A stretch of DNA of 16,486 bases from Candidatus Aenigmatarchaeota archaeon (GTDB lineage: Archaea; Aenigmatarchaeota; Aenigmatarchaeia; QMZP01; QMZT01). Each line of letters opens with the position of its first letter. The stretch's first letter is position 1. Position numbers and translations under genes: made by a program. Shown here piece by piece: positions 2 through 13,510 of this stretch. The notes under the pieces were generated by a model. The model was given only the letters and a program-made list of their open reading frames with translations, did not search any database and was not told the origin of the DNA. The DNA is taken from NCBI GenBank assembly GCA_041489155.1, contig JBGPQP010000018.1:1-16486 (forward strand). Direction: 5' to 3'.

Positions 2-364
2 AGCCACTCCTCCCACGGTTCCCATTCAAGCCACGGCTCCCACGCCAGCCACTCCTCCCACGGTTCCCATTCAAGCCACGGCTCCCACGCCAGCCACTCC
101 TCCCACGGTTCCCATTCAAGCCACGGCTCCCACTCCTCCCACGCCAGCCACGGCTCCCACGGCTCCCACTCCTCCCACGGTTCCCATTCAAGCCACGGCT
201 CCCACGGCTCCCACTCCTCCCACGGTTCCCATTCAAGCCACGGCTCCCACTCCTCCCACGCCAGCCACGGCTCCCACGGCTCCCACTCCTCCCACGCCAG
301 CCACGGCTCCCACGGCTCCCACGCCTCCCACTCCTCCCACGGAAGTTGCTGGACGTGCCAGTAA
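2..364 (+). CDS. hxsA: His-Xaa-Ser repeat protein (HxsA-like putative precursor), 5'-truncated by the window edge
   Basis: Frame +2 reads S-HSS-HGS-HSS-HGS-HAS-...-HAS-HSS-HGS-CWTCQ-stop (TAA 362-364). There are 38 consecutive H-x-S units at 5-346 (18 HGS, 14 HSS, 6 HAS). Nucleotide variation is synonymous in this frame (CAC/CAT; TCC/AGC/TCA/AGT; GGT/GGC/GGA). hxsB/hxsD-like genes lie 3-5 kb away. Absent from the ORF track because the start codon is outside the window. Confidence 0.88.
   Translation, partial: SHSSHGSHSSHGSHASHSSHGSHSSHGSHASHSSHGSHSSHGSHSSHASHGSHGSHSSHGSHSSHGSHGSHSSHGSHSSHGSHSSHASHGSHGSHSSHASHGSHGSHASHSSHGSCWTCQ
5..346 (+). repeat. Coding 9-bp tandem repeat array (CAY-NNN-Ser codon) with higher-order 45-bp unit
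   Basis: 38 x 9-nt units. 5-49 and 50-94 are identical 45-mers (CACTCCTCC CACGGTTCC CATTCAAGC CACGGCTCC CACGCCAGC), 95-130 repeats the first four blocks, and later blocks are shuffled. Confidence 0.97.
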
Positions 365-437
365 ATTCTGAGAAATCATAAAAGAAAATATTGCTAAAAG
401 CTTAACTTTAAAAACTAGATTTTTGACCGCAAAAGCT

Positions 438-1619
438 TTAGCACATCGCCACTTTTTTGTAAACCTCGGACAACTTTTGAGCGAATATTTTTCCATCCAC
501 GTTTTTGGAATTGCTTTTAACTCTTCTGCCTATCTCATTGGCCTTTTCAGGATTCTTTACAATCCATTCAAGTCTTTTGGCATAAGCAGCAGTATCCCTA
601 GGTTCAACAACTATAACGTCAATATTGTCTTTTAATGTTGCGAAGGAAGGCTTCCTGTGGGTTTCCTGACTTATCACGACGCATTTACCGAAATAGAAGG
701 CCTCGTATGCCGTGAGCGGGGTGTGCATTTTCACAGGGAAATCAACCTCCGTTGCAATCAGGGCCGTAATGGAATTGTATAATAGCGGCATTGCCCATGG
801 AGGCTGATAGTCCAGGATTTTGGTTTTCTTTTGCAGGCCAAATTTACATAAATAGTGTTGTATGGAATCCCTGCCTGACTCCGGCGCCATGAGCAAAAGA
901 AAATCATTATCCTTTATTTTTGAAAGCGCTCTAAGCAGTTCTATCATGCCTTTGTTTTTTGAAATTTTACCGAAGCAGCCTATTATCGGTACTTTGTCGC
1001 AGGCTCCTATTTTTTTAAGAAAAGCCCTTATTTTTGCGCGGGAGGCATCGTCTTTAATGCTCATGCCAAAATCGCTTAAACATTCTATTTTATCTCTGGG
1101 TATACCCAGATTGAGCATGTCTTCAAGTTTAATTGGATCTAAGATTATCCGGTCGCTCTTTTTCAACATCTCTGTCAGAAGTTTGCTGTAAAGAGGGCTC
1201 CTCAGGAGATAAGTTATGTCGCTGCCCCCGTGCCTGGTGACCAGAGGCTTCCCTGTGATTAGTTTTGAAAAGAAGCCGGCAACTCCGTAGGGAATGAAAT
1301 ATTTGGTGTCTATGAGGTCTATGCTGTTTTCTCCTATGACGTCAACGACCAGATTTACCAGCGTGGAGATTCTTGACTTCACAAGAAGGTCCTTTTCATA
1401 TTCAGGTGCGTGAACCTTCACGTTCCTCGGCTCATAACCCCTCATCTGCTCCTTGTCTAGATTTTCAAGGTAGTTTTCACCCTCCTCGGCATGATTCGTG
1501 ACAATATGTATTTTATGCCCCATTTCACCGAGGGTTCTTGCAAGCCAGTAATTTATACTTGCACTTCCGCCCGTGTGAGGGGGGTATTTGCCTATCATGC
1601 ATATGTTCGGTCTGCCCAT
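438..1619 (-). CDS. Glycosyltransferase, GT-B fold, GT4-like
   Basis: N-terminus ICMIGKYPPHTGGS...LARTLGEMGHKIHIVT, PLVTRHGGSDI, GKISKNKG and C-terminal PLTAYEAFYFGKCVV are typical of GT4/RfaB-like enzymes. AGGAG SD precedes the ATG. Confidence 0.88.
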   Translation of the reverse strand: MGRPNICMIGKYPPHTGGSASINYWLARTLGEMGHKIHIVTNHAEEGENYLENLDKEQMRGYEPRNVKVHAPEYEKDLLVKSRISTLVNLVVDVIGENSIDLIDTKYFIPYGVAGFFSKLITGKPLVTRHGGSDITYLLRSPLYSKLLTEMLKKSDRIILDPIKLEDMLNLGIPRDKIECLSDFGMSIKDDASRAKIRAFLKKIGACDKVPIIGCFGKISKNKGMIELLRALSKIKDNDFLLLMAPESGRDSIQHYLCKFGLQKKTKILDYQPPWAMPLLYNSITALIATEVDFPVKMHTPLTAYEAFYFGKCVVISQETHRKPSFATLKDNIDVIVVEPRDTAAYAKRLEWIVKNPEKANEIGRRVKSNSKNVDGKIFAQKLSEVYKKVAMC

Positions 1620-1706
1620 AATCTCCTGTTCAATCCAAGTTTTAAAATGTTATCTTTTAAGTCAAGCCTATTTTAAAAACAAGCCGCCCATCAAAGCGCC
1701 TTTGGC

Positions 1707-3197
1707 CTAGTCGTAGGTGCAAGTATACCCACAGCAACCAGGGTCGCCTTCCCCGCCGCAGTCTTGGGTTTCACCTAAGCACGACACGCAAAGCCCCAAC
1801 TGATAGTCCATAGTAGCGGTGCACTCTTCGCAGCCACCCCAATATTGCCATTTGCAGCAGTAATTACCTCCGCCACAATCACCGTTAGTATTACATTCGC
1901 AATTCCCCAAAGGTTTGTACTCCTCCCAATTCCCTTCGCTCTGGTTTCCGACCTGCTCGCTGGGCGTGTTGGTCACGTTGTTAAGCAGGGCGTTGTAAAC
2001 GTCTATTCTGGAATAATTTGCCCCCTCGTGCTCGATTAAAAAGCCTGTTGCCCTGAGCCTGTAGTTCAAATCCATAGGTTCTAGTGATTCGTTTTCAAGA
2101 ATGAGGGCTGCTGCCCCTGCAACCACAGCGGCTGAAGCGGACGTCCCGCTTCCTATTCTGAACCCGCCCCCAAGCTTTGTTGAGGTTATATTCACGCCTG
2201 GGGCCAGAACATCAAGAAGCGGGTTTATATTATTATCGGGATAAAACGTATCATTCTTGGTGGTTGCAGCAACAGAGGTCACATTCGTTCCGCACGCAGG
2301 AGCGGTCAAATTGCTGCTATGGTCATTACCAGAGGCAGCGACAACAAACATACCCTGTTGAGCGGCGTAATTCGATTCATCCGTGACCAGAACAGCGTCG
2401 CAGTACCCGTCAAAACTCCCGCCGCCAAGGGCAAGCAGCATGACGGAGATTTTATACAAATCCTTGTTCTCGATACAATAATCTATTGCAGCTATTATGT
2501 CCGACTCATAACCTATTCCATCGTTGCCCAAAGCTTTAACCGCAACGATTTTCGCATCCGGTGCGATGCCTGCAACAATCCCTGACACATACGTTCCGTG
2601 TCCGTGGTCATCCATCGGATCAGGGTCATCATTTACGAAATCATAACCGCCGATGTATTTACCCGAAAGGTTCTCATGGTTATAATCGATTCCCGTGTCT
2701 ATAACACAAACAGTCTGGCTTTTACCAGTGAAGCCCAGATCCCACACCAAATCAGCCCCGATTAGCGGGACAGTCTCACCCAGCGTCGAAATTAATTGGT
2801 GATCCACCTGTATTAATTCCACTTCGTTTTCCAAAGAATACATGAGTTTTAAAAGACCATCCCTTTTCAATGTTCCTGAAAGAAAGCTCCCCGATTCACG
2901 TTTCTTCCCGAATTCCCCTTCGCTCAACCCTAACTCTTTGACACCTCCCCTGAACTTTATTATGACCCTGGACTCATCTTTTTTTGAAAATTTATCAATA
3001 ACCTCCTTGTTGATATATGTTATTCCCTTGGAGCTTGCAATCTCCCCCACATCAACTTTTTCAGCCCCTGGCGCTGCTGTGAAGTAACCTATAATAGCGC
3101 CTCTCAAGAAAACGAGTGCAGATAAAACTATAATTATTAGAATCAAAAGGATTACAAAATAAACCCTCGGCCCAATTTTCTTGGTCATAATGGTCAT
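1707..3197 (-). CDS. Membrane-anchored/secreted subtilisin-like serine protease (S8) with propeptide region and Cys-rich C-terminal tail
   Basis: Catalytic motifs VIDTGID (Asp), DDHGHGTYVSG (His), AASGND (oxyanion Asn), GSGTSASAA (Ser). N-terminal hydrophobic helix VYFVILLILIIIVLSALVFL. Start is uncertain: TTG 3206, ATG 3197 or ATG 3188. Confidence 0.9.
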   Translation of the reverse strand: MTIMTKKIGPRVYFVILLILIIIVLSALVFLRGAIIGYFTAAPGAEKVDVGEIASSKGITYINKEVIDKFSKKDESRVIIKFRGGVKELGLSEGEFGKKRESGSFLSGTLKRDGLLKLMYSLENEVELIQVDHQLISTLGETVPLIGADLVWDLGFTGKSQTVCVIDTGIDYNHENLSGKYIGGYDFVNDDPDPMDDHGHGTYVSGIVAGIAPDAKIVAVKALGNDGIGYESDIIAAIDYCIENKDLYKISVMLLALGGGSFDGYCDAVLVTDESNYAAQQGMFVVAASGNDHSSNLTAPACGTNVTSVAATTKNDTFYPDNNINPLLDVLAPGVNITSTKLGGGFRIGSGTSASAAVVAGAAALILENESLEPMDLNYRLRATGFLIEHEGANYSRIDVYNALLNNVTNTPSEQVGNQSEGNWEEYKPLGNCECNTNGDCGGGNYCCKWQYWGGCEECTATMDYQLGLCVSCLGETQDCGGEGDPGCCGYTCTYD

Positions 3198-3236
3198 AAA
3201 ATTCAATACTAATCTAATAATTATTTAAACTAAAAC

Positions 3237-3248
3237 TATAAAAATTTG
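3237..3248 (-). promoter_or_regulatory. Putative archaeal BRE/TATA element upstream of the S8 protease gene
   Basis: CAAATTTTTATA on the - strand, 31-49 nt upstream of the candidate starts. An identical 12-mer lies upstream of hxsD. Confidence 0.5.
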
Positions 3249-3263
3249 AAATTATCAACCCTA

Positions 3264-4712
3264 TCAAGCATTCCCCTTTGTCCAATGTTTAAAAATCTTT
3301 CTGTCCCTTTCAGAAAGGATAATTTTTTCAAAAATTGTTTTAATCATCCCATCGAATATCTTGCATCTCATATCTTCCGGGAGTTTCGGGACAATGCTTC
3401 CTTGTGATGTGTATGTGTTCACAGGGCATAGTGCGCAATAAGCAAACCATGGGCATGCATCGCATAATGAGCAAAATTTAGAGGAGATATCAATCATTGA
3501 TGTTATGGTAGGCGATCTGAAAATGTCTTCATATTTGCTTGTTTTCACATTTCCAAGCTTGAATATGTCCAACACTTTCGCTTCATCGCAAGTGAATATG
3601 TCACCTTTATGGTTGTAAAGAAGCTGGCCTATGCCTGCACCGCATGGGGATCTGAAATCGACCATATTACTGCTCTCCTTTCCCAGTATTACGCTGCTCG
3701 CCAGAACTGCCCATACCTCCCTGAATTTCTCTCCGCTCCTGTTTATCTTCAGAACGTAATCAAGGACATTTTTCCAAAATTTCAAATATTCCTCAGCGGT
3801 GTAACCTATCTTCCCCCATGTTTTTTGTGCGAATCCAAGATTATTCATAAACCTAGGCCATACATCACTAAAGCCCAATTTTCTGAATTCATCAACTATC
3901 TCTTTCGGATAATCCAGTGAGTATCTGGTAACCGTTGTGAGCGCATGAAATCGGAAATCATATCCCTTCATCTCTTCCTTCAATCTCTTTATCCAGTAGA
4001 CCACATCCTCATACGAACCCTTCCCTCCTAGGTATTTTCTGTTCTTGTCATGGACCTCTTTCGGTCCGTCTAAGGACGTGCACAAACCTATAGGTATGTG
4101 ATCTTTCAGAAATTTTATGAAATCATCATCCGCATTTGTCAGATTCGTGACAATTGAAAAATTAACTTTTCTGTTCTGCTTTCTTGCGAGTTCTCTTGCA
4201 TAATCAATGACAAATTCCACGATATCAAAATTGAAGGAACAATCCCCACCTTGGAATTCAATAGTGAAGTCTTTGGCGGTGGTTTTGAACATGAAATCTG
4301 CAATTGCTTTTGCCGTGTCCTTGTCCATGTCCCATCCTTTTGCATCAACTGGTTTGGAAAATGAGTGGCAATATACGCATCTCATGTTGCATCTGAAGGT
4401 CGGGACCATTATATGCAAATCAGGGCCGTTGAAAAGGAACCAGTATCTTTTTCTGTAATCTTCCACGACTTGGTTTATGTTATCCTTTGTGACAATTATG
4501 CCATTTTCTTTGAGCGTTTTATACAGATTAGCCTGCTCTTCAATTCTGCCTGTTCTAAAAAGCATATATTCTTTGCTGTTTAGCACGACCCATGCACCAT
4601 GATCCGTGGTTATAAGAATATGTTCATCATCAAATTTGTGAACCCTGTGTTGATTTATAAGATAGTCCTTTTCCGGTTTTTTCAACTCAAAATCTATTCC
4701 ACTATTAACCAT
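3264..4712 (-). CDS. hxsB: His-Xaa-Ser system radical SAM/SPASM maturase, HxsB-like
   Basis: CxxxCxxC (RCNMRCVYCH) in the context LHIMVPTFRC...DMDKDTAK...IEFQGG. TSLDGPKEVHDKNR and VDFRSPCGAGIGQLLYNHKGDIFTCDE resemble HxsB as I recall it. SPASM cysteines CDACPWFAYCALC...C. Adjacent to hxsD-like genes and an HxS-repeat ORF. Confidence 0.87.
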   Translation of the reverse strand: MVNSGIDFELKKPEKDYLINQHRVHKFDDEHILITTDHGAWVVLNSKEYMLFRTGRIEEQANLYKTLKENGIIVTKDNINQVVEDYRKRYWFLFNGPDLHIMVPTFRCNMRCVYCHSFSKPVDAKGWDMDKDTAKAIADFMFKTTAKDFTIEFQGGDCSFNFDIVEFVIDYARELARKQNRKVNFSIVTNLTNADDDFIKFLKDHIPIGLCTSLDGPKEVHDKNRKYLGGKGSYEDVVYWIKRLKEEMKGYDFRFHALTTVTRYSLDYPKEIVDEFRKLGFSDVWPRFMNNLGFAQKTWGKIGYTAEEYLKFWKNVLDYVLKINRSGEKFREVWAVLASSVILGKESSNMVDFRSPCGAGIGQLLYNHKGDIFTCDEAKVLDIFKLGNVKTSKYEDIFRSPTITSMIDISSKFCSLCDACPWFAYCALCPVNTYTSQGSIVPKLPEDMRCKIFDGMIKTIFEKIILSERDRKIFKHWTKGNA

Positions 4713-4716
4713 CTGG

Positions 4717-4971
4717 TCACAACCCAGCTCTATTATTCTTTACTTCAGCAAGCAAATAGTTGATGAAGTTATATGTCATCTCTTCGATTCTCAAATCACT
4801 TACCTTAAGATTCAGCGTAACTATCATATTTTCGTCCATTTTTTTAATTCTAATATCCGCGACTTTTCTGAAATCATCCGCAACCTTTCTTATAACACGT
4901 TCAGGGTAGAAATCATATCTGAGCTCAAGTTCAGCTCTTTTTCTTTTTTTGTCTATTTTCAGGTTTCTCAT
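4717..4971 (-). CDS. Small HxsD-like protein (84 aa)
   Basis: Pattern FYPERVIRKVADDF...YNFINYLL parallels IYPLEIIYSASYVF...NDFNNELLNY of the upstream HxsD. Strong GGAGG SD inside the hxsD 3' end, 41-nt overlap with hxsD, and ends 4 nt before the hxsB ATG. Confidence 0.7.
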   Translation of the reverse strand: MRNLKIDKKRKRAELELRYDFYPERVIRKVADDFRKVADIRIKKMDENMIVTLNLKVSDLRIEEMTYNFINYLLAEVKNNRAGL

Positions 4972-5515
4972 TTTCAGCCTCCTTTGGCGGCGTCCATGGT
5001 TTCGCTATTCCAAGTGGGTCATCGATAACGAAATCTTCTCCTGCTGGTTCGCTCTCTTCCTCGTGTTTTTCGCAAGTTGGACAATATTTCTCTCCGCACT
5101 CTTCGCATAAGATGAGTTCACATCCACATTTTTCGCAATATTCCTCATCCTTTTCAGAGACCTCCTTTTGTAAATTCGTCACCAAAGCCCTTTCTATTAT
5201 TGCCTTTCTCAGAGGCTGGTTTCTTACCGCCTGCACGACATAAACAGCATAGTTTAGAAGTTCATTGTTGAAGTCGTTGCCCAAATTTTCAAGGTTTTCC
5301 GTCTTGCTTTTGGGTTTCATCTGGATGAATATCTTTCCCTGCGGGTTGCCGTCTATCAGTATGTAAGCCCTGTCCAGAAATACATAAGAAGCAGAATAGA
5401 TGATTTCAAGCGGATATATTTTAGAGTTTACTGAAATTGTCAAAAAATTATTCTTCCTGTCGATTTCTATATTCCTCAGCACCCTGTCTTTATTTTTATA
5501 TGAGTTTTTAACCAT
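4931..5515 (-). CDS. hxsD: His-Xaa-Ser system protein HxsD with Cys-rich insert
   Basis: IYPLEIIYSASYVFLDRAYILID...DFNNELLNY...LRKAIIERAL matches the HxsD pattern. It is followed by CEKCGC-x4-CEEC-x4-CPTC and DDPLGIAKPW. AAGGTG SD upstream. Confidence 0.8.
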   Translation of the reverse strand: MVKNSYKNKDRVLRNIEIDRKNNFLTISVNSKIYPLEIIYSASYVFLDRAYILIDGNPQGKIFIQMKPKSKTENLENLGNDFNNELLNYAVYVVQAVRNQPLRKAIIERALVTNLQKEVSEKDEEYCEKCGCELILCEECGEKYCPTCEKHEEESEPAGEDFVIDDPLGIAKPWTPPKEAENEKPENRQKKKKS

Positions 5516-5548
5516 GAAAACACCTTATTTTTGCGGCCATGCCCGGAT

Positions 5549-5560
5549 TATAAAAATTTG
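5549..5560 (-). promoter_or_regulatory. Putative archaeal BRE/TATA element for the hxsD operon
   Basis: CAAATTTTTATA on the - strand, 34 nt upstream of the hxsD ATG. Confidence 0.55.
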
Positions 5561-5588
5561 GGTTTAAGATTTAAATACAGAAGCATTT

Positions 5589-6479
5589 TCAGAATGAGGT
5601 TATGACAAGCGGTTTTTCCTCCACCACTATTGTGTGTTCAGCTTGGGCTACAGGCATGCCCGATCTTTCCTTTAGGACAGGGTAGCTCCTTATCGCTTCT
5701 GCCATCTCAAGCTGGCGCAGCGCGAAAGAAACCTTGAAGGGCGAAAGACCCATTTTTATCATCCAGCGTTTGGCGAACGGCAGGCCCATGTACTCATTGC
5801 CTGCCAGGTCGAGTATATTCCTGGCTTCGGGTAACCTTACCGGCTTAGGCTGCACAAAGGAGAAAATTTCTACCGGTTCGGATTCTTTTACATACCCATT
5901 AGTCTCGCAGACGAAAGGCTCGAGAGCTATTACGTCGCCTTCTTTGAGTTCTTCCCTGGAATCGTTTTTTATGTTGGGGATTGTCGGCTGGCCGTGAATT
6001 ACGTACTGGTCAAGCCCGTGACCTGTAAGATTTACGACGACGCCGTAGCCTGATGCCTGAACCACCTCGTTTATCGCTTGGCTTATTTCAGAAACCATTG
6101 TGCCTGGTTTTATGACCTTTATGCCCGCTTCCAGAGCCTTCTCAACGGCAGTTATAAGGTCGTTTTTTTCAGAACAATATGTGTATGCCATGTCGGCGAC
6201 CCACCCATCTATGTGTATACCATGGTCTATTTTGACCAGATCGCCCGCCTTTATCACATTTGCATCGTCAAACTTAGGAGTATAGTGGGCTGTGATTTCA
6301 TTTATGCCGATGTTAACAGGGAATGCCGGCTTGCCACCAAGCTGCAAAATGCGATTCTCTATGAATTCAGCGAGCTCGAGAATTTTCATGCCGGGCTGTA
6401 TCTTTTCCAGAACCTCGGTTTTTAGCTTGGTCGAAATCTCGCCCGCCTTTCTGTATTTTTCCAGAGTTTCTTTATCCAT
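5589..6479 (-). CDS. map: Methionine aminopeptidase, type II (archaeal)
   Basis: AFPVNI...AHYTP, KIDHGIHIDGWVADMAYT, NLTGHGL, ALEPF, type II helical insertion (GLPFAKRW), AQAEHTI. Confidence 0.96.
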   Translation of the reverse strand: MDKETLEKYRKAGEISTKLKTEVLEKIQPGMKILELAEFIENRILQLGGKPAFPVNIGINEITAHYTPKFDDANVIKAGDLVKIDHGIHIDGWVADMAYTYCSEKNDLITAVEKALEAGIKVIKPGTMVSEISQAINEVVQASGYGVVVNLTGHGLDQYVIHGQPTIPNIKNDSREELKEGDVIALEPFVCETNGYVKESEPVEIFSFVQPKPVRLPEARNILDLAGNEYMGLPFAKRWMIKMGLSPFKVSFALRQLEMAEAIRSYPVLKERSGMPVAQAEHTIVVEEKPLVITSF

Positions 6480-6497
6480 AACGTTCTATTTGCCCTT

Positions 6498-6509
6498 TTA
6501 TTTAAATAA
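6498..6509 (-). promoter_or_regulatory. Putative TATA box for map (probably leaderless transcript)
   Basis: Palindromic TTATTTAAATAA about 20 nt upstream of the map ATG, with no SD evident. Confidence 0.45.
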
Positions 6510-6522
6510 GAAATCGTTTGGT

Positions 6523-6538
6523 AAGAAAAAAATGAAAA
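6523..6538 (-). terminator. Oligo-T archaeal-type terminator downstream of metK
   Basis: The - strand reads TTTTCATTTTTTTCTT shortly after the metK stop. Confidence 0.45.
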
Positions 6539-6545
6539 GGGGGCC

Positions 6546-7706
6546 TTACAAGCCCGCATCTTTTTTCAGCGCTTCGGCCTTGTCCGTCTTCTCCCACGTG
6601 AAATCAGGGTCGTTCCTGCCGAAGTGGCCGTAGCAGGTCGTTTTGCTGAATATCGGCCTTCGGAGCCTGAGCTCTTCTATCATGTGCGCTGGCCTGAAGT
6701 CGAAATGCTTTTTGACGATTTCAACTATCCTTTCGTCCGGTATCCTGCCAGTTCCCTCCGTATCCACGAATATCGATATCGGTTCGCTTCCGCCGATCGC
6801 GTAAGAAACCTGCACCTCGCACCTGTCGGCAAGGCCAGCTGCAACGATGTTTTTCGCCACGTATCTGGCATAGTACGCTGCTGTCCTGTCGACCTTCGTC
6901 GGGTCCTTGCCGGAGAAAGCGCCGCCTCCATGGCTGCCCATGCCGCCGTAGGTGTCGGCTATGATCTTCCTTCCCGTGCAGCCGGAATCGGCAACAGGGC
7001 CACCCATCACGAATCTTCCTGTGTTGTTTATGAAGTATTTTGTCCTTTCATCAACCAGCCTGCCGCAAACAGGTTTGATGACATGCTCCTTTATGTCCTT
7101 CCTCAGCTTTTCCAGATCGACATCAGGATCGTGCTGAGCTGCCACGACAACAGAATCGATCCTTTTCGGAACGCCTTTCTCATACTCGACCGTGACCTGG
7201 GTTTTGCCGTCCGGCCTGAGATATTTCAGGGTTCCGTTTTTCCTCACTTCAGCGAGTTTGAAGGCAATCTTATGCGCAAGGGCGATAGGCATCGGCATGA
7301 GTTCGGGCGTTTCCCTGCATGCGTAACCGACCATCATACCCTGATCCCCCGCGCCAACCTCTTTTTTCTCGCTCTTGTCAACACCCAAAGCTATGTCAGG
7401 GCTCTGCTCGTGTATCGAGACCAGAATGCCGACAGACTGATGGTCAAAGCCGTATTCGGGTTTTGTGTACCCAATGCGTTTAAGAACTGAGCGCACCACT
7501 CCCTGCACGTCAACATAAGTCTTTGTCGTTATTTCTCCTGTTACGACTATGAAACCCATTCCCGCCATCGTTTCACAGGCAACTCTCGCGGTAGGATCTT
7601 CCTTTATTATCGCGTCCAGGACCGCGTCCGAAATCTGGTCGCATACCTTGTCTGGATGACCCTCTGTCATCGCTTCTGACGTAAATAGAAACTTCCCGTT
7701 TTTCAT
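6546..7706 (-). CDS. metK: S-adenosylmethionine synthetase, bacterial/eukaryotic-type
   Basis: [80 protein letters not shown] upstream. Confidence 0.98.
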
Positions 7707-7762
7707 TGAACCACCTCAAACATCTCCATATCGCTTCGGATTGTCGTTTCAATCTTTTAGTT

Positions 7763-7792
7763 AGACGAGTCTGCTTTATATAGATTTATATA
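7763..7792. promoter_or_regulatory. Divergent promoter region between metK and HTH-CBS gene
   Basis: TTTATATA occurs twice (7775-7782, 7785-7792), next to an inverted repeat AGAC-GA-GTCT (7763-7772). Confidence 0.5.
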
Positions 7793-7825
7793 TTCAGATG
7801 TTAAAAATTATAACTGGTGGGAATA

Positions 7826-8368
7826 ATGGAAGCGACGCTCATAACGGGTGAATACATCAAAAAATTGAGGATCGAAAGAGGCCTTTCCCAGACCGAACTC
7901 GCAAAATTCGCCGACGTGTCGCAGGCGCACGTGGCGAAAATCGAGGGTGGCAAAGTCGACCCGAGGCTTTCGACGGTGAACAAAATCCTTGTCGTGCTGC
8001 ACGAAAAGGAGAAGGTAAAGCAATGCTGCAGGGACGTCATGAGCAAGGTGATGTCGGTGAGGCCGGAAACGCCGGTCAAGAAGATAATAGCGATTATGCG
8101 CGCTTCAGGCTTTTCGCAGGTGCCGGTCATCGAAAGAGGGATACAGATAGGAGAAATCAGCGAGGAAACGCTGCTGCACAATATGGACAGGAAGCTTGAA
8201 AAGCTGCAGGCGAAGGACATTATCGACAGGCCTTTCCCCGTCGTCGATGCAGGCGATTCTACTGAAACCCTGCCGCAGCTCCTGGACGCGCATCCGGCGG
8301 TTCTGGTTGCTGAGAAGGGGAGAATCACCGGCATAATAACCAAATCGGATTTGCTGGGCCTGAAATAG
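7826..8368 (+). CDS. XRE-type HTH transcriptional regulator with tandem CBS domains
   Basis: IKKLRIERGLSQTELAKFADVSQAHVAKIEGGKVDPRLSTVNKI (HTH), DVMS...FSQVPVIE...IGEISE and GIITKSDLL (CBS pair). ATG 7826 is preceded by a GGTGG SD, so it is preferred over GTG 7817. Confidence 0.93.
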   Translation: MEATLITGEYIKKLRIERGLSQTELAKFADVSQAHVAKIEGGKVDPRLSTVNKILVVLHEKEKVKQCCRDVMSKVMSVRPETPVKKIIAIMRASGFSQVPVIERGIQIGEISEETLLHNMDRKLEKLQAKDIIDRPFPVVDAGDSTETLPQLLDAHPAVLVAEKGRITGIITKSDLLGLK

Positions 8369-12481: not shown

Positions 12482-12790
12482 TTAACCTTTCCATTCGTCT
12501 TTCTTTACCTTCGGCTTGACGCCTGAATGGTAGGCGGCCTTCGCTATCGCGTGCGTCCCCGCGGGCGAGGTCAAGAAGATGAAGATTATCAGGAACAGCG
12601 CCTTTACGAAGATGAAGGAAAAGAAGCTGTCAAGCATGACGCCTGCAAGAATCAGGCACGTCCCGCCCACGTTAACGACGGTCTGGGCGTGCGAGCGCGC
12701 ATAAACATCGGGGAAGCGAACCAGGCCTATAGCTCCTATTATCGAAAACATCCCTCCGAGCAGCATGAGCCAGATTCCAAACATAGTCAT
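12482..12790 (-). CDS. mnhG: Mrp/Mnh antiporter subunit G (MbhC/MbxC-like)
   Basis: GAIGLVRFPDVYARSHA and FIFLTSPAGTHAIAKAAY signatures; three hydrophobic helices. Confidence 0.92.
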   Translation of the reverse strand: MTMFGIWLMLLGGMFSIIGAIGLVRFPDVYARSHAQTVVNVGGTCLILAGVMLDSFFSFIFVKALFLIIFIFLTSPAGTHAIAKAAYHSGVKPKVKKDEWKG

Positions 12791-13047
12791 ACCTTAGTAT
12801 GCTTTTTTCCCATCAGGTATTTTGATACGGTGAGAGTGCTGAGGAATGATATCATCGCGTAGACAAGCGCCACATCAACGAACATGCTATTGTTGTAGAA
12901 CAACGCCAGCAGGACGATTATGGCTATGACCGCCGAGTTTATAGTGTCAGCGGCGAGAACCCTGTCAGGCGCGGTCGGGCCTTTGATCGCGCGTATCAGG
13001 CATATGAAAATCGCAATCACCAGCAGGAAGACGGCGTATTCTATCAT
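12787..13047 (-). CDS. mnhF: Mrp/Mnh antiporter subunit F (MbhB/MbxB-like)
   Basis: RAIKGPTAPDRVLAAD and DVALVYAMISFLSTLTVSKYL. Start moved to ATG 13047, just after the mnhE stop. 4-nt overlap with mnhG. Confidence 0.92.
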   Translation of the reverse strand: MIEYAVFLLVIAIFICLIRAIKGPTAPDRVLAADTINSAVIAIIVLLALFYNNSMFVDVALVYAMISFLSTLTVSKYLMGKKHTKV

Positions 13048-13048
13048 G

Positions 13049-13510
13049 TCAGTCCCATATCTTTGCAAGGAATTTGTCAAACACTCCTGCTATCTGGTTT
13101 TTGTCCTTGCCCATGTTGAGCCAGTGGACGTAAAGCTTCTCCGGCTCTGCCTCGAGTGTGAGCGTGCCAGGAGTCATGGTTATCGAATTGGAAAGCGCGG
13201 TTATGCCCCAGCTGTGCTTGTGAGGATGCCTGACTTCGACTATGCCGGGATTTATCTTCCCGGTTATAATTCTGTATGTGACGTCTGCGTTGCACAGCAC
13301 TTCCTGCCAGATGTAATACGGAATGTAGGCAAGAAAAATGAAGAAGCCCTTTATGTAGCCGCTTTTCGCCTGCCTCAAAAAGAAATAGCCGAAGACGCCT
13401 GCTATCACCGCCGATATCACGCCGCCTACCAGCAATTCGTCGTAGCCTGTCCCGTTAAGCAGTGTCCAGAAACACCATAGCAGCAAAAAGAGCAAAACCG
13501 AACCCTTCAT
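13049..13510 (-). CDS. mnhE: Mrp/Mnh antiporter subunit E (MbhA/MbxA-like)
   Basis: INPGIV...LSNSITMTPGTLT...LYVHW signature; N-terminal TM helices. Confidence 0.93.
   Translation of the reverse strand: MKGSVLLFLLLWCFWTLLNGTGYDELLVGGVISAVIAGVFGYFFLRQAKSGYIKGFFIFLAYIPYYIWQEVLCNADVTYRIITGKINPGIVEVRHPHKHSWGITALSNSITMTPGTLTLEAEPEKLYVHWLNMGKDKNQIAGVFDKFLAKIWD

Follow-up and report, generated by a model that had tools for sequence, protein, structure and literature searches.

A probable archaeal His-Xaa-Ser radical SAM protein-maturation cluster in the DPANN phylum Aenigmatarchaeota

The only tested His-Xaa-Ser (Hxs) system is HXS of Escherichia coli, which keeps phage DNA from entering the cell (Li et al., Nat Commun 2026, PMC13128918). 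According to that study, HxsB, HxsC and HxsD are needed for the N-terminal processing of HxsA, for a modification of +8 Da and for export, while HxsA itself, which combines five basic repeats with a peptidoglycan-binding domain, functions as an intact protein. HXS systems were found in Pseudomonadota in 99.7% of the cases, the gene order hxsD-hxsB-hxsC-hxsA was kept in 99.6% of the bacterial systems, and the word "archaea" does not occur in the text (PMC13128918). Here, we analyzed a stretch of 16,486 bp from a Candidatus Aenigmatarchaeota archaeon, representing the complete contig C18 of a genome of 1.13 Mb in 39 contigs (estimated completeness 89.65%), which is called the window throughout. 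Positions 2-5515 probably constitute one arm of a low-GC accessory cluster of at least 15 kb, encoding an archaeal Hxs radical S-adenosylmethionine (SAM) protein-maturation system of the DPANN Aenigmatarchaeota. A first-pass annotation of the same DNA had considered chemistry and function of Hxs systems as not settled. This view is outdated, since antiphage activity and the +8 Da modification were shown in the study cited above. The features of this arm are given below, with ORF standing for open reading frame.

2..364, plus strand: 3' part of hxsA, an HxsA4-type precursor (NF038313, 68.9 bits versus a cut-off of 55)
365..437, no strand: AT-rich convergent gap of 73 nt between the stop codons of hxsA and the GT4 gene (direct reading and ORF coordinates)
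438..1619, minus strand: GT4-family (GT-B) glycosyltransferase without predicted membrane segment (Pfam Glycos_transf_1, 56.5 bits; Glyco_transf_4, 33 bits)
1707..3206, minus strand: S8 subtilase, predicted to be membrane-anchored, with a Cys-rich C-terminal tail of about 65 amino acids (Peptidase_S8, 128.9 bits)
3264..4712, minus strand: HxsB radical SAM/SPASM maturase (TIGR03978, 423.1 bits versus a cut-off of 370)
4717..4971, minus strand: HxsD-like small protein (NF038315, 41.9 bits versus a cut-off of 41)
4931..5515, minus strand: HxsD (TIGR03976 as best match, 44.5 bits versus a cut-off of 50)
5547..5556, minus strand: candidate operon promoter, TATA-like TTTTTATAAT ca. 30 nt ahead of the ATG of hxsD, suggested by direct reading

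ORF listing and family scans recovered every gene named in the first-pass annotation in its place. As described there, hxsD, hxsD-like, hxsB and the S8 and glycosyltransferase genes form one co-directional run, which converges on the H-x-S repeat gene across the 73-nt gap. The hxsD-like gene shares 41 nt with hxsD, and 4 nt separate its end from hxsB. By direct reading, an AAGGTG ribosome-binding-like element accompanies the TATA-like sequence upstream of hxsD; a consensus scan for promoters and terminators was not usefully above shuffled sequences (17 versus 11.1±3.0 and 8 versus 4.9±1.9). Contigs of a public run from another study span positions 293-7800 with zero differences, including the junction from the hxsA tail via the GT4 gene to the S8 gene.

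HxsB, the HxsA fragment (on HxsA4) and the HxsD-like protein all scored above curated cut-offs. Weighed against non-Hxs SPASM families, a check proposed in the initial annotation, HxsB matched TIGR03978 far better than the next-best family, PapB (132.9 bits), and no other gene of the genome reached the curated TIGR03978 cut-off. The cysteines of the CxxxCxxC motif (C108, C112, C115) and of the SPASM domain were invariant among 23 homologues, the closest solved chain was 5wgg (E-value of 7.6e-44), and the identity to bacterial HxsB was 30-32% across 95-99% of the length. HxsD showed a conserved N-domain, a Cys-rich, zinc-ribbon-like insert and a conserved C-terminal motif DDPxGIAxPW. In an alignment of 32 HxsD sequences W174 was invariant and D166, I170 and P173 were present in at least 90%. 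This motif, common to all archaeal HxsD proteins, may serve as a docking peptide. The CxxC...CxxC...CxxC insert at residues of about 125-160 was present only in the closest relatives. The nearest ESM Atlas clusters were HxsD as well (score 0.83, taken as a lead), and a sequence search for solved relatives of HxsD returned none, with a best E-value of 1. The HxsD-like protein is a paralogue of the HxsD N-domain (BLASTP, 25% identity over 75 amino acids, E-value of 0.004).

The substrate gene hxsA was found in two pieces. The part in the window is cut at base 1 of the contig and open toward its 5' end; it encodes 38 H-(G/S/A)-S repeats, with G in 18, S in 14 and A in 6 of the X positions, followed by the tail GSCWTCQ, and its tandem unit measures 117 nt (91% matches). 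A six-frame scan of the genome revealed a single other H-x-S coding place, located at the end of contig C22 in compatible orientation and running off the contig:

C22:2..376, minus strand: 5' part of hxsA, coding for 15 repeats preceded by a charged leader and then a hydrophobic segment (NF038313, 46.8 bits alone)

Since the genome contains no third H-x-S place and both pieces lie at contig ends in compatible orientation, we infer that the assembly split hxsA between C22 and the window and that the two contigs join. The protein would then carry at least 53 neutral H-(G/S/A)-S repeats (38 plus 15) and a CxxC tail. The public contigs do not assemble the hxsA repeat, and in four runs the listed pieces on positions 1-292 were just 55-56 nt long. 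An intact relative of 299 amino acids combines leader, 64 repeats and a Cys/Gly tail within one protein, and such full-length proteins therefore exist. A total of 48 leaders could be aligned, with the pattern LPKIKKxIxxFLxEEEGxISK, a hydrophobic stretch with an Ala-rich end, a junction of the type H(T/S)N...TAxHxHH and then the repeats. The leader comprises about 27 amino acids and ends with an invariant Gly; among 16 sequences P12, G27, K31 and G38 were invariant. The residue before this Gly is Arg in the window's protein and Glu, Lys or Arg in relatives, and x-I-S-K and further polar residues follow it ahead of the hydrophobic stretch.

The HxsA4 model matched 5 of 6 HxsA proteins of relatives (48-96 bits, cut-off 55), two of them above the cut-off, and as the match began at profile position 1-2 in four relatives, the leader is part of the model. 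Canonical HxsA proteins of the TIGR03979 type have a signal peptide, few basic H-x-S repeats and a peptidoglycan-binding domain. Of the 8 H-x-S triplets in Aeromonas HxsA, 4 have Arg as X, while among 524 DPANN repeats X is occupied by G, S or A in 458 and by Arg in a single one. The end of the Aeromonas protein matches a C-terminal peptidoglycan-binding domain as described for HxsA in PMC13128918. A different architecture was seen in an Iainarchaeota-group HxsA of 487 amino acids (L078, positions 16085-17548, minus strand), in which H-x-S repeats are followed by S-C-H-x repeats and a large C-terminal domain.

The second arm, C22, is 9.9 kb long and has a GC content of 0.395, matching hxsB (0.395) and hxsD (0.397) and contrasting with 0.493 for the genome. 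It encodes a SPASM radical SAM protein whose best model was ACGX-like (178 bits), a second radical SAM protein that we call HxsC4-like (168 bits on HxsC4, NF038332, versus a cut-off of 500; 111.6 bits on HxsC, TIGR03977, versus 267.9), an A24 prepilin-type peptidase, three B12-binding radical SAM proteins and an AglJ-like GT2 protein. Four HxsC4-like relatives or paralogues gave 162-181 bits on HxsC4, and cluster-associated radical SAM proteins as a whole scored only 160-181, again versus 500. HxsC4-like orthologues (E<=1e-70) were detected in 23 genomes, 17 of them HxsB-positive, often beside the A24 gene. With C22 reverse-complemented and joined to the window, nine co-directional genes result, in the order HxsD, HxsD-like, HxsB, S8, GT4, SPASM radical SAM, HxsC4-like, A24 and B12-binding radical SAM, and hxsA would lie antisense between the GT4 and the SPASM radical SAM genes if the contigs join in this way. 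Conserved partners of the system, the A24 peptidase and the HxsC4-like radical SAM proteins, reside on another contig and were outside the view of the first annotation. Three further HxsC4-like radical SAM genes and a methyltransferase-like gene were observed at a contig end (C17:13547-17579; L016 4548-8580), adjoining genes for large Cys-rich secreted proteins. This group may belong to the same island or form a second radical SAM cluster.

The Hxs-type A24 peptidase, encoded on C22 in the present genome (Pfam Peptidase_A24 and Arc_PepC matches), tracked HxsB almost perfectly. In a profile of 14 Hxs-linked A24 proteins the catalytic residues D22 and D85, the latter within WxAGDAKLF, were invariant. 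Using a cut-off of E<=1e-25, the profile matched 32 of the 371 genomes of the phylum, 31 of which were among the 33 HxsB-positive ones, giving 31/33 HxsB-positive versus 1/338 HxsB-negative genomes; as the profile was built from Hxs-linked copies, the single match in 338 HxsB-negative genomes is the informative figure. The exceptions were G221 with A24 only, and G042 and G169, in which HxsB is found on contigs of about 3 kb. A24 and HxsB were located on different contigs in four genomes (G335, G336, G252, G281) and 116 kb apart in G249. The genome of the window has a second, separate A24 gene on contig C6.

Such a peptidase raises the possibility that HxsA is a pilin-like subunit, in which the A24-cut hydrophobic N-terminus would drive assembly of a filament decorated with His/Ser repeats. 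A dedicated A24 paralogue with both catalytic Asp residues points in this direction, as does its best named family, the prepilin peptidase EppA, with a weak match (38-53 bits, cut-off 450). In EppA substrates Gln follows Arg-Gly, and the same residue follows Arg-Gly in the window's HxsA. However, the window and C22 lack genes for a pilus ATPase or platform, and the polar x-I-S-K stands between Gly and the hydrophobic stretch; a pilin-like role is very unlikely in our estimate. The resemblance to class III signal peptides processed by PibD, FlaK and EppA lies in an A24 enzyme that has the two catalytic Asp residues and in a substrate whose charged N-terminus is followed by Gly and a hydrophobic segment, whereas the leader of about 27 amino acids, the polar residues after Gly, a substrate that is a radical SAM target and the absence of linked pilus assembly genes set the present case apart.

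In order to place the locus among its relatives, 196 HxsB relatives were collected from one-per-species genomes and 79 loci were kept. These span Aenigmat-, Iain-, Nanohal-, Nano-/Woese-, Micr- and Undinarchaeota plus two contigs labelled as Candidate Phyla Radiation (CPR), and the nearest HxsB relatives were labelled Aenigmatarchaeota. The expected archaeal clade became visible in the HxsB tree: 76 DPANN-type rows split from the canonical bacterial HxsB proteins, of which just four rows, all from plasmids, were included, with a Shimodaira-Hasegawa-like approximate likelihood ratio test (SH-aLRT) support of 100. Phylum labels were mixed within the DPANN clade, with 23 changes compared to a possible minimum of 8. 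The occurrence of HxsB was patchy (E<=1e-60), with 33/371 genomes of the phylum, 4/22 of the family and 0/4 of the other genomes of the genus. The proteins of the window and C22 were searched against six-frame ORFs of the 79 loci, 29 of which have at least 5 kb on both flanks. HxsD was found in 65/79 loci (26/29 of the well-flanked ones), A24 in 59/79 (21/29), HxsA in 52/79 (26/29), an HxsC4-like radical SAM protein of at least 150 bits in 43/79 (19/29), a small HxsD-like ORF beside HxsB in 36/79 (17/29), GT4 in 4/79 (1/29) and S8 in 2/79 (0/29). The usual order in relatives is A24, HxsD, sometimes HxsD-like, HxsB and HxsA. For many hxsB genes the contig ends at a distance of 1-3 kb, which is what assembly breaks at the repeat gene would produce. 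The initial description as an undescribed archaeal system holds insofar as an Hxs type with HxsB above the cut-off occurs in an archaeon; it has to be qualified, as HxsA4, HxsC4 and HxsD_rel models exist and NCBI already names HxsB in metagenome-assembled genomes (MAGs) of Aenigmatarchaeota, Iainarchaeota and Altiarchaeota. A literature search found no paper describing the HxsA4, HxsC4 and HxsD-like models or their gene context, nor did it return any that deals with Hxs systems of archaea or connects radical SAM proteins with a prepilin peptidase.

Several observations were made beside this survey. Locus L119 (8424-11380, plus strand) carries two tandem full-length HxsB copies, which are sister rows on the tree and thus reflect a recent duplication. 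The CPR-labelled contigs encode HxsB matches to the DPANN query with 42% (L116, Saccharibacteria label) and 38% identity (L137, Falkowbacteria label), both together with HxsD and, in L137, with A24; L116 is the first branch of the DPANN-type clade, while L137 was too short and was left out of the tree. These contigs could reflect mis-binning or transfer between ultra-small lineages. Canonical hxsB was present on 405 plasmid records, of which 316 are from Klebsiella and 322 typed as conjugative, which fits a mobile defence system. Four plasmid loci with the D-B-C core order served for comparison, of which three were annotated as hxs and one had hxsA annotated.

Compared to bacterial HXS, the archaeal cluster shares an HxsB-type SPASM radical SAM protein, an HxsD-family protein, a leader-bearing exported H-x-S substrate and a patchy accessory distribution. 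It differs by lacking canonical HxsC and HxsA and by adding HxsD-like, A24, HxsC4-like and B12-binding radical SAM proteins, GT4 and S8. The bacterial five basic repeats contrast with at least 53 neutral ones without a peptidoglycan-binding domain, and the gene order is hxsD, hxsD-like, hxsB, S8, GT4 with hxsA on the opposite strand, in an archaeal host. With respect to the NCBIfam variant models, the window's HxsA fragment passes HxsA4 and its HxsD-like protein passes NF038315.

Among relatives whose HxsB is 77-85% identical, hxsB is followed by a gene for S8, a GT4-like protein, a SPASM or a B12-binding radical SAM protein, and this position looks like a variable tailoring slot. The first-pass annotation had asked whether the glycosyltransferase, the S8 protease and the long H-x-S ORF recur together near HxsB homologues. 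Recurrence was indeed observed: genome G337 repeats the order HxsB-S8-GT4 with converging hxsA as well as the SCWTCQ tail, at identities of 68% for HxsB, 55% for S8 and 63% for GT4. In the majority this is not the case, with 77 of the 79 loci lacking S8 and 75 lacking GT4, a scarcity that makes both local add-ons and not defining parts. Besides the window, S8 follows HxsB in G337, on two contigs of G345 and on the metagenome contig L178, so that this arrangement is confined to the window and four other contigs of this archaeal family; single shared ancestry within one family could explain it. In three full Hxs-linked copies the catalytic triad D170, H203 and S356, the oxyanion residue N294 and ten tail cysteines were invariant and the N-terminal hydrophobic anchor was kept. 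S8 homologues are common (145/371 genomes at E<=1e-20). Giant S8 proteins of 660-1,800 amino acids (L164-L168, including three genomes of the same genus) are encoded directly after MetK-MetAP, the very site of the Hxs cassette in the window, and surface genes seem to vary at this site as at a hot spot. In a tree of 13 S8 rows the giants formed one clade (100/99), the Hxs-linked short forms fell outside of it in an unresolved group, and giants and short forms together made up a clade (100/100). The short S8 therefore follows the Hxs cassette and not the genus, and the tree weakens the notion that it might simply be the orthologue of the giant MetAP-adjacent S8 of sister genomes. We regard S8 as a family-specific addition of uncertain relevance.

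GT4 presented a different picture. Its family is rare and restricted to DPANN, with only 21 protein clusters at E<=1e-30 among 5.8 billion proteins, and the three cluster names bearing a taxon lead to Aenigmatarchaeota or Diapherotrites. Orthologues (E<=1e-40) occur in 8/371 genomes of the phylum, in all eight within two genes of Hxs-associated radical SAM genes and in six of them touching the SPASM radical SAM gene, the HxsC4-like gene or both. In the window and G337 one gene, S8, separates GT4 from HxsB. The same radical SAM genes are close to GT4 in the Iainarchaeum locus L074, and in the Woesearchaeota locus L112 GT4 lies directly beside the SPASM radical SAM gene. GT4 is thus a genuine partner of the radical SAM module and a candidate tailoring enzyme, which may or may not act on HxsA itself.

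Both genes are central to a competing explanation, namely a plain archaeal Hxs locus in which S8 is a resident surface protease downstream of MetAP, GT4 belongs to a separate radical SAM/sugar module, and neither acts on HxsA. The low frequency of both genes, the varying gene after HxsB, the giant S8 at the same MetK-MetAP site in five genomes without an HxsB match and the presence of the GT4 module in four genomes without detected HxsB or HxsA leader argue for it. On the other hand, S8 and GT4 do not sit at the edge of the cluster but are enclosed by HxsB on one side and by hxsA with the radical SAM/A24 arm on the other, the gene order and tail recur in G337, the short S8 does not group within the clade formed by the giant S8 proteins of its own genus, and the very rare GT4 family was never seen apart from these radical SAM genes. 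The plain locus is possible, though on balance improbable.

The reading of one maturation system including both arms is our preferred one, and it has to be held against a number of opposing observations. The genome contains no canonical HxsC, the best TIGR03977 match being 198.2 bits (C17) versus a cut-off of 267.9, and the C22 radical SAM protein stays far below the HxsC4 cut-off, though HxsC4 is its best family. The canonical HxsA model TIGR03979 matches nothing in the genome at E<=1. A cleavage by A24 after Gly is a guess, as the following residues are polar, unlike in classical prepilins, and an AxA Sec-type site beyond the hydrophobic segment fits equally well. S8 is missing in nearly all related loci, and equally similar S8 domains (48-55% identity) occur in G344, G347, G349, G351 and G352, none of which has an HxsB match; moreover, a terminator-like hairpin with a T-run is situated between S8 and GT4. 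Four of the eight GT4-bearing genomes have no HxsB at E<=1e-60, and a leader profile found HxsA in none of the five genomes G300, G248, G253, G354 and G221, which are MAGs of 73-91% completeness, compared to 5/5 positive controls related to the profile's own rows. The DPANN repeats are nearly free of Arg at X and no peptidoglycan-binding domain was seen. Finally, no defence-island context was detected, and PADLOC 2.0, which contains no Hxs model, gave only generic pVip-like, subtilase and PDC-M51A matches.

If the preferred reading is correct, HxsB, aided by HxsD and HxsD-like, and the other radical SAM enzymes would act on HxsA while it is still in the cytoplasm, similar to the situation in E. 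coli HXS. Thereafter, the leader would be cut off behind the invariant Gly by the dedicated A24 aspartyl peptidase, and the hydrophobic segment would hold the product in or at the membrane, replacing the peptidoglycan-binding domain of bacterial HxsA. GT4 would add a sugar to the product or to an intermediate from its constant radical SAM neighbours, while the extracellular S8 protease would trim or release the repeat domain. The product is likely an envelope-displayed modified His/Ser polymer. By analogy, such a polymer could act as a barrier to virus entry. As the repeats are neutral and a peptidoglycan-binding domain is missing, the electrostatic DNA-binding model transfers poorly, and given these neutral repeats metal binding appears about as plausible as an antiviral barrier. 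We envisage an archaeal Hxs system in two modules, which would provide either an antiviral barrier or a metal-binding surface polymer.

That the product is mainly a metal-binding surface polymer for capture or storage of Ni, Zn, Cu or Fe, and not an antiviral barrier, would agree with at least 53 His residues in neutral repeats, with the near absence of Arg across the 524 DPANN repeats, with the Cys-containing tails on both HxsA and S8 and with the lack of defence-gene context. No linked transporter or metal-regulator gene is present in the window or C22, however, and the sole tested Hxs system is antiviral (PMC13128918). The patchy presence of HxsB in phylum and genus and the mixed labels on its tree are at least equally compatible with an accessory trait, for instance defence, and we consider a predominantly metal-binding polymer unlikely.

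A further alternative is a product resembling ribosomally synthesised and post-translationally modified peptides (RiPPs), in which S8 would cut the modified repeat into small secreted His/Ser peptides for antagonism or signalling. Features of such pathways were found in the cluster, i.e. conserved leader, core repeats, maturase and dedicated protease. A radical SAM/SPASM enzyme, a leader-bearing precursor and a protease occur together, the nearest relatives of HxsB are the peptide maturases PapB, SCIFF and QhpD and the solved chain 5wgg, and S8 showed weak matches to QhpE-like and PatA-like models. In the QhpC/QhpD/QhpE maturation of quinohemoprotein amine dehydrogenase the leader is removed by QhpE, a subtilisin-like protease of the cytoplasm. 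The Qhp system resembles the present one in a SPASM radical SAM enzyme acting on a leader-bearing polypeptide, with HxsB reaching 120.5 bits on TIGR03906 and S8 39.5 bits on NF049966, but both scores are far below the cut-offs, and the window's S8 is anchored to the membrane and carries a Cys-rich tail on its ectodomain. Most loci lack S8, the window and C22 contain neither an exporter nor an immunity gene, and the hydrophobic segment of the precursor suggests retention at the membrane; furthermore, bacterial HxsA acts as a whole protein (PMC13128918). Small secreted peptides are quite unlikely as the product.

The remainder of the window agrees with the otherwise archaeal housekeeping surroundings noted before, as type II MetAP, L18, L19e, archaeal S2 and FtsY flank the cluster. 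The other window genes further comprise a bacterial-type MetK, an Lhr helicase and Mrp subunits. MetK (6546-7706, minus strand; TIGR01034, 580 bits) is bacterial amid the otherwise archaeal gene set, and MetK and MetAP are syntenic among relatives of the family. A small regulator with HTH_3 and CBS domains (7817-8368, plus strand) is divergent from the Lhr helicase gene; a minus-strand ORF overlapping it (7801-8343) had no family match and is probably not a gene. Genes for the subunits G, F and E of an Mrp-type cation/proton antiporter (12482-13510, minus strand) adjoin ftsY. Neither tRNA genes nor Rfam families were detected in the window or C22.

The large separate HxsB clade across DPANN contrasts with the 99.7% Pseudomonadota and the fixed four-gene layout reported in the HXS study (PMC13128918). 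The co-occurrence of A24 with HxsB points to a specific enzyme that could account for the as yet unexplained processing of the HxsA N-terminus and connects radical SAM protein maturation with prepilin-type processing. The form with S8 and GT4 suggests that tailoring genes can be swapped at the position after hxsB. On a tentative basis, DPANN archaea may widely make a long radical SAM-modified His-Xaa-Ser surface polymer, whose leader would be cut by its own prepilin-type peptidase and which here would also be glycosylated by GT4 and trimmed by the subtilase, forming an envelope antiviral gate or a host-contact or metal-capture layer of these wall-less episymbionts. If true, Hxs would be an ancient system of bacteria and archaea and not a Pseudomonadota defence system, and it would offer a testable envelope function in organisms with few known defence or surface systems.

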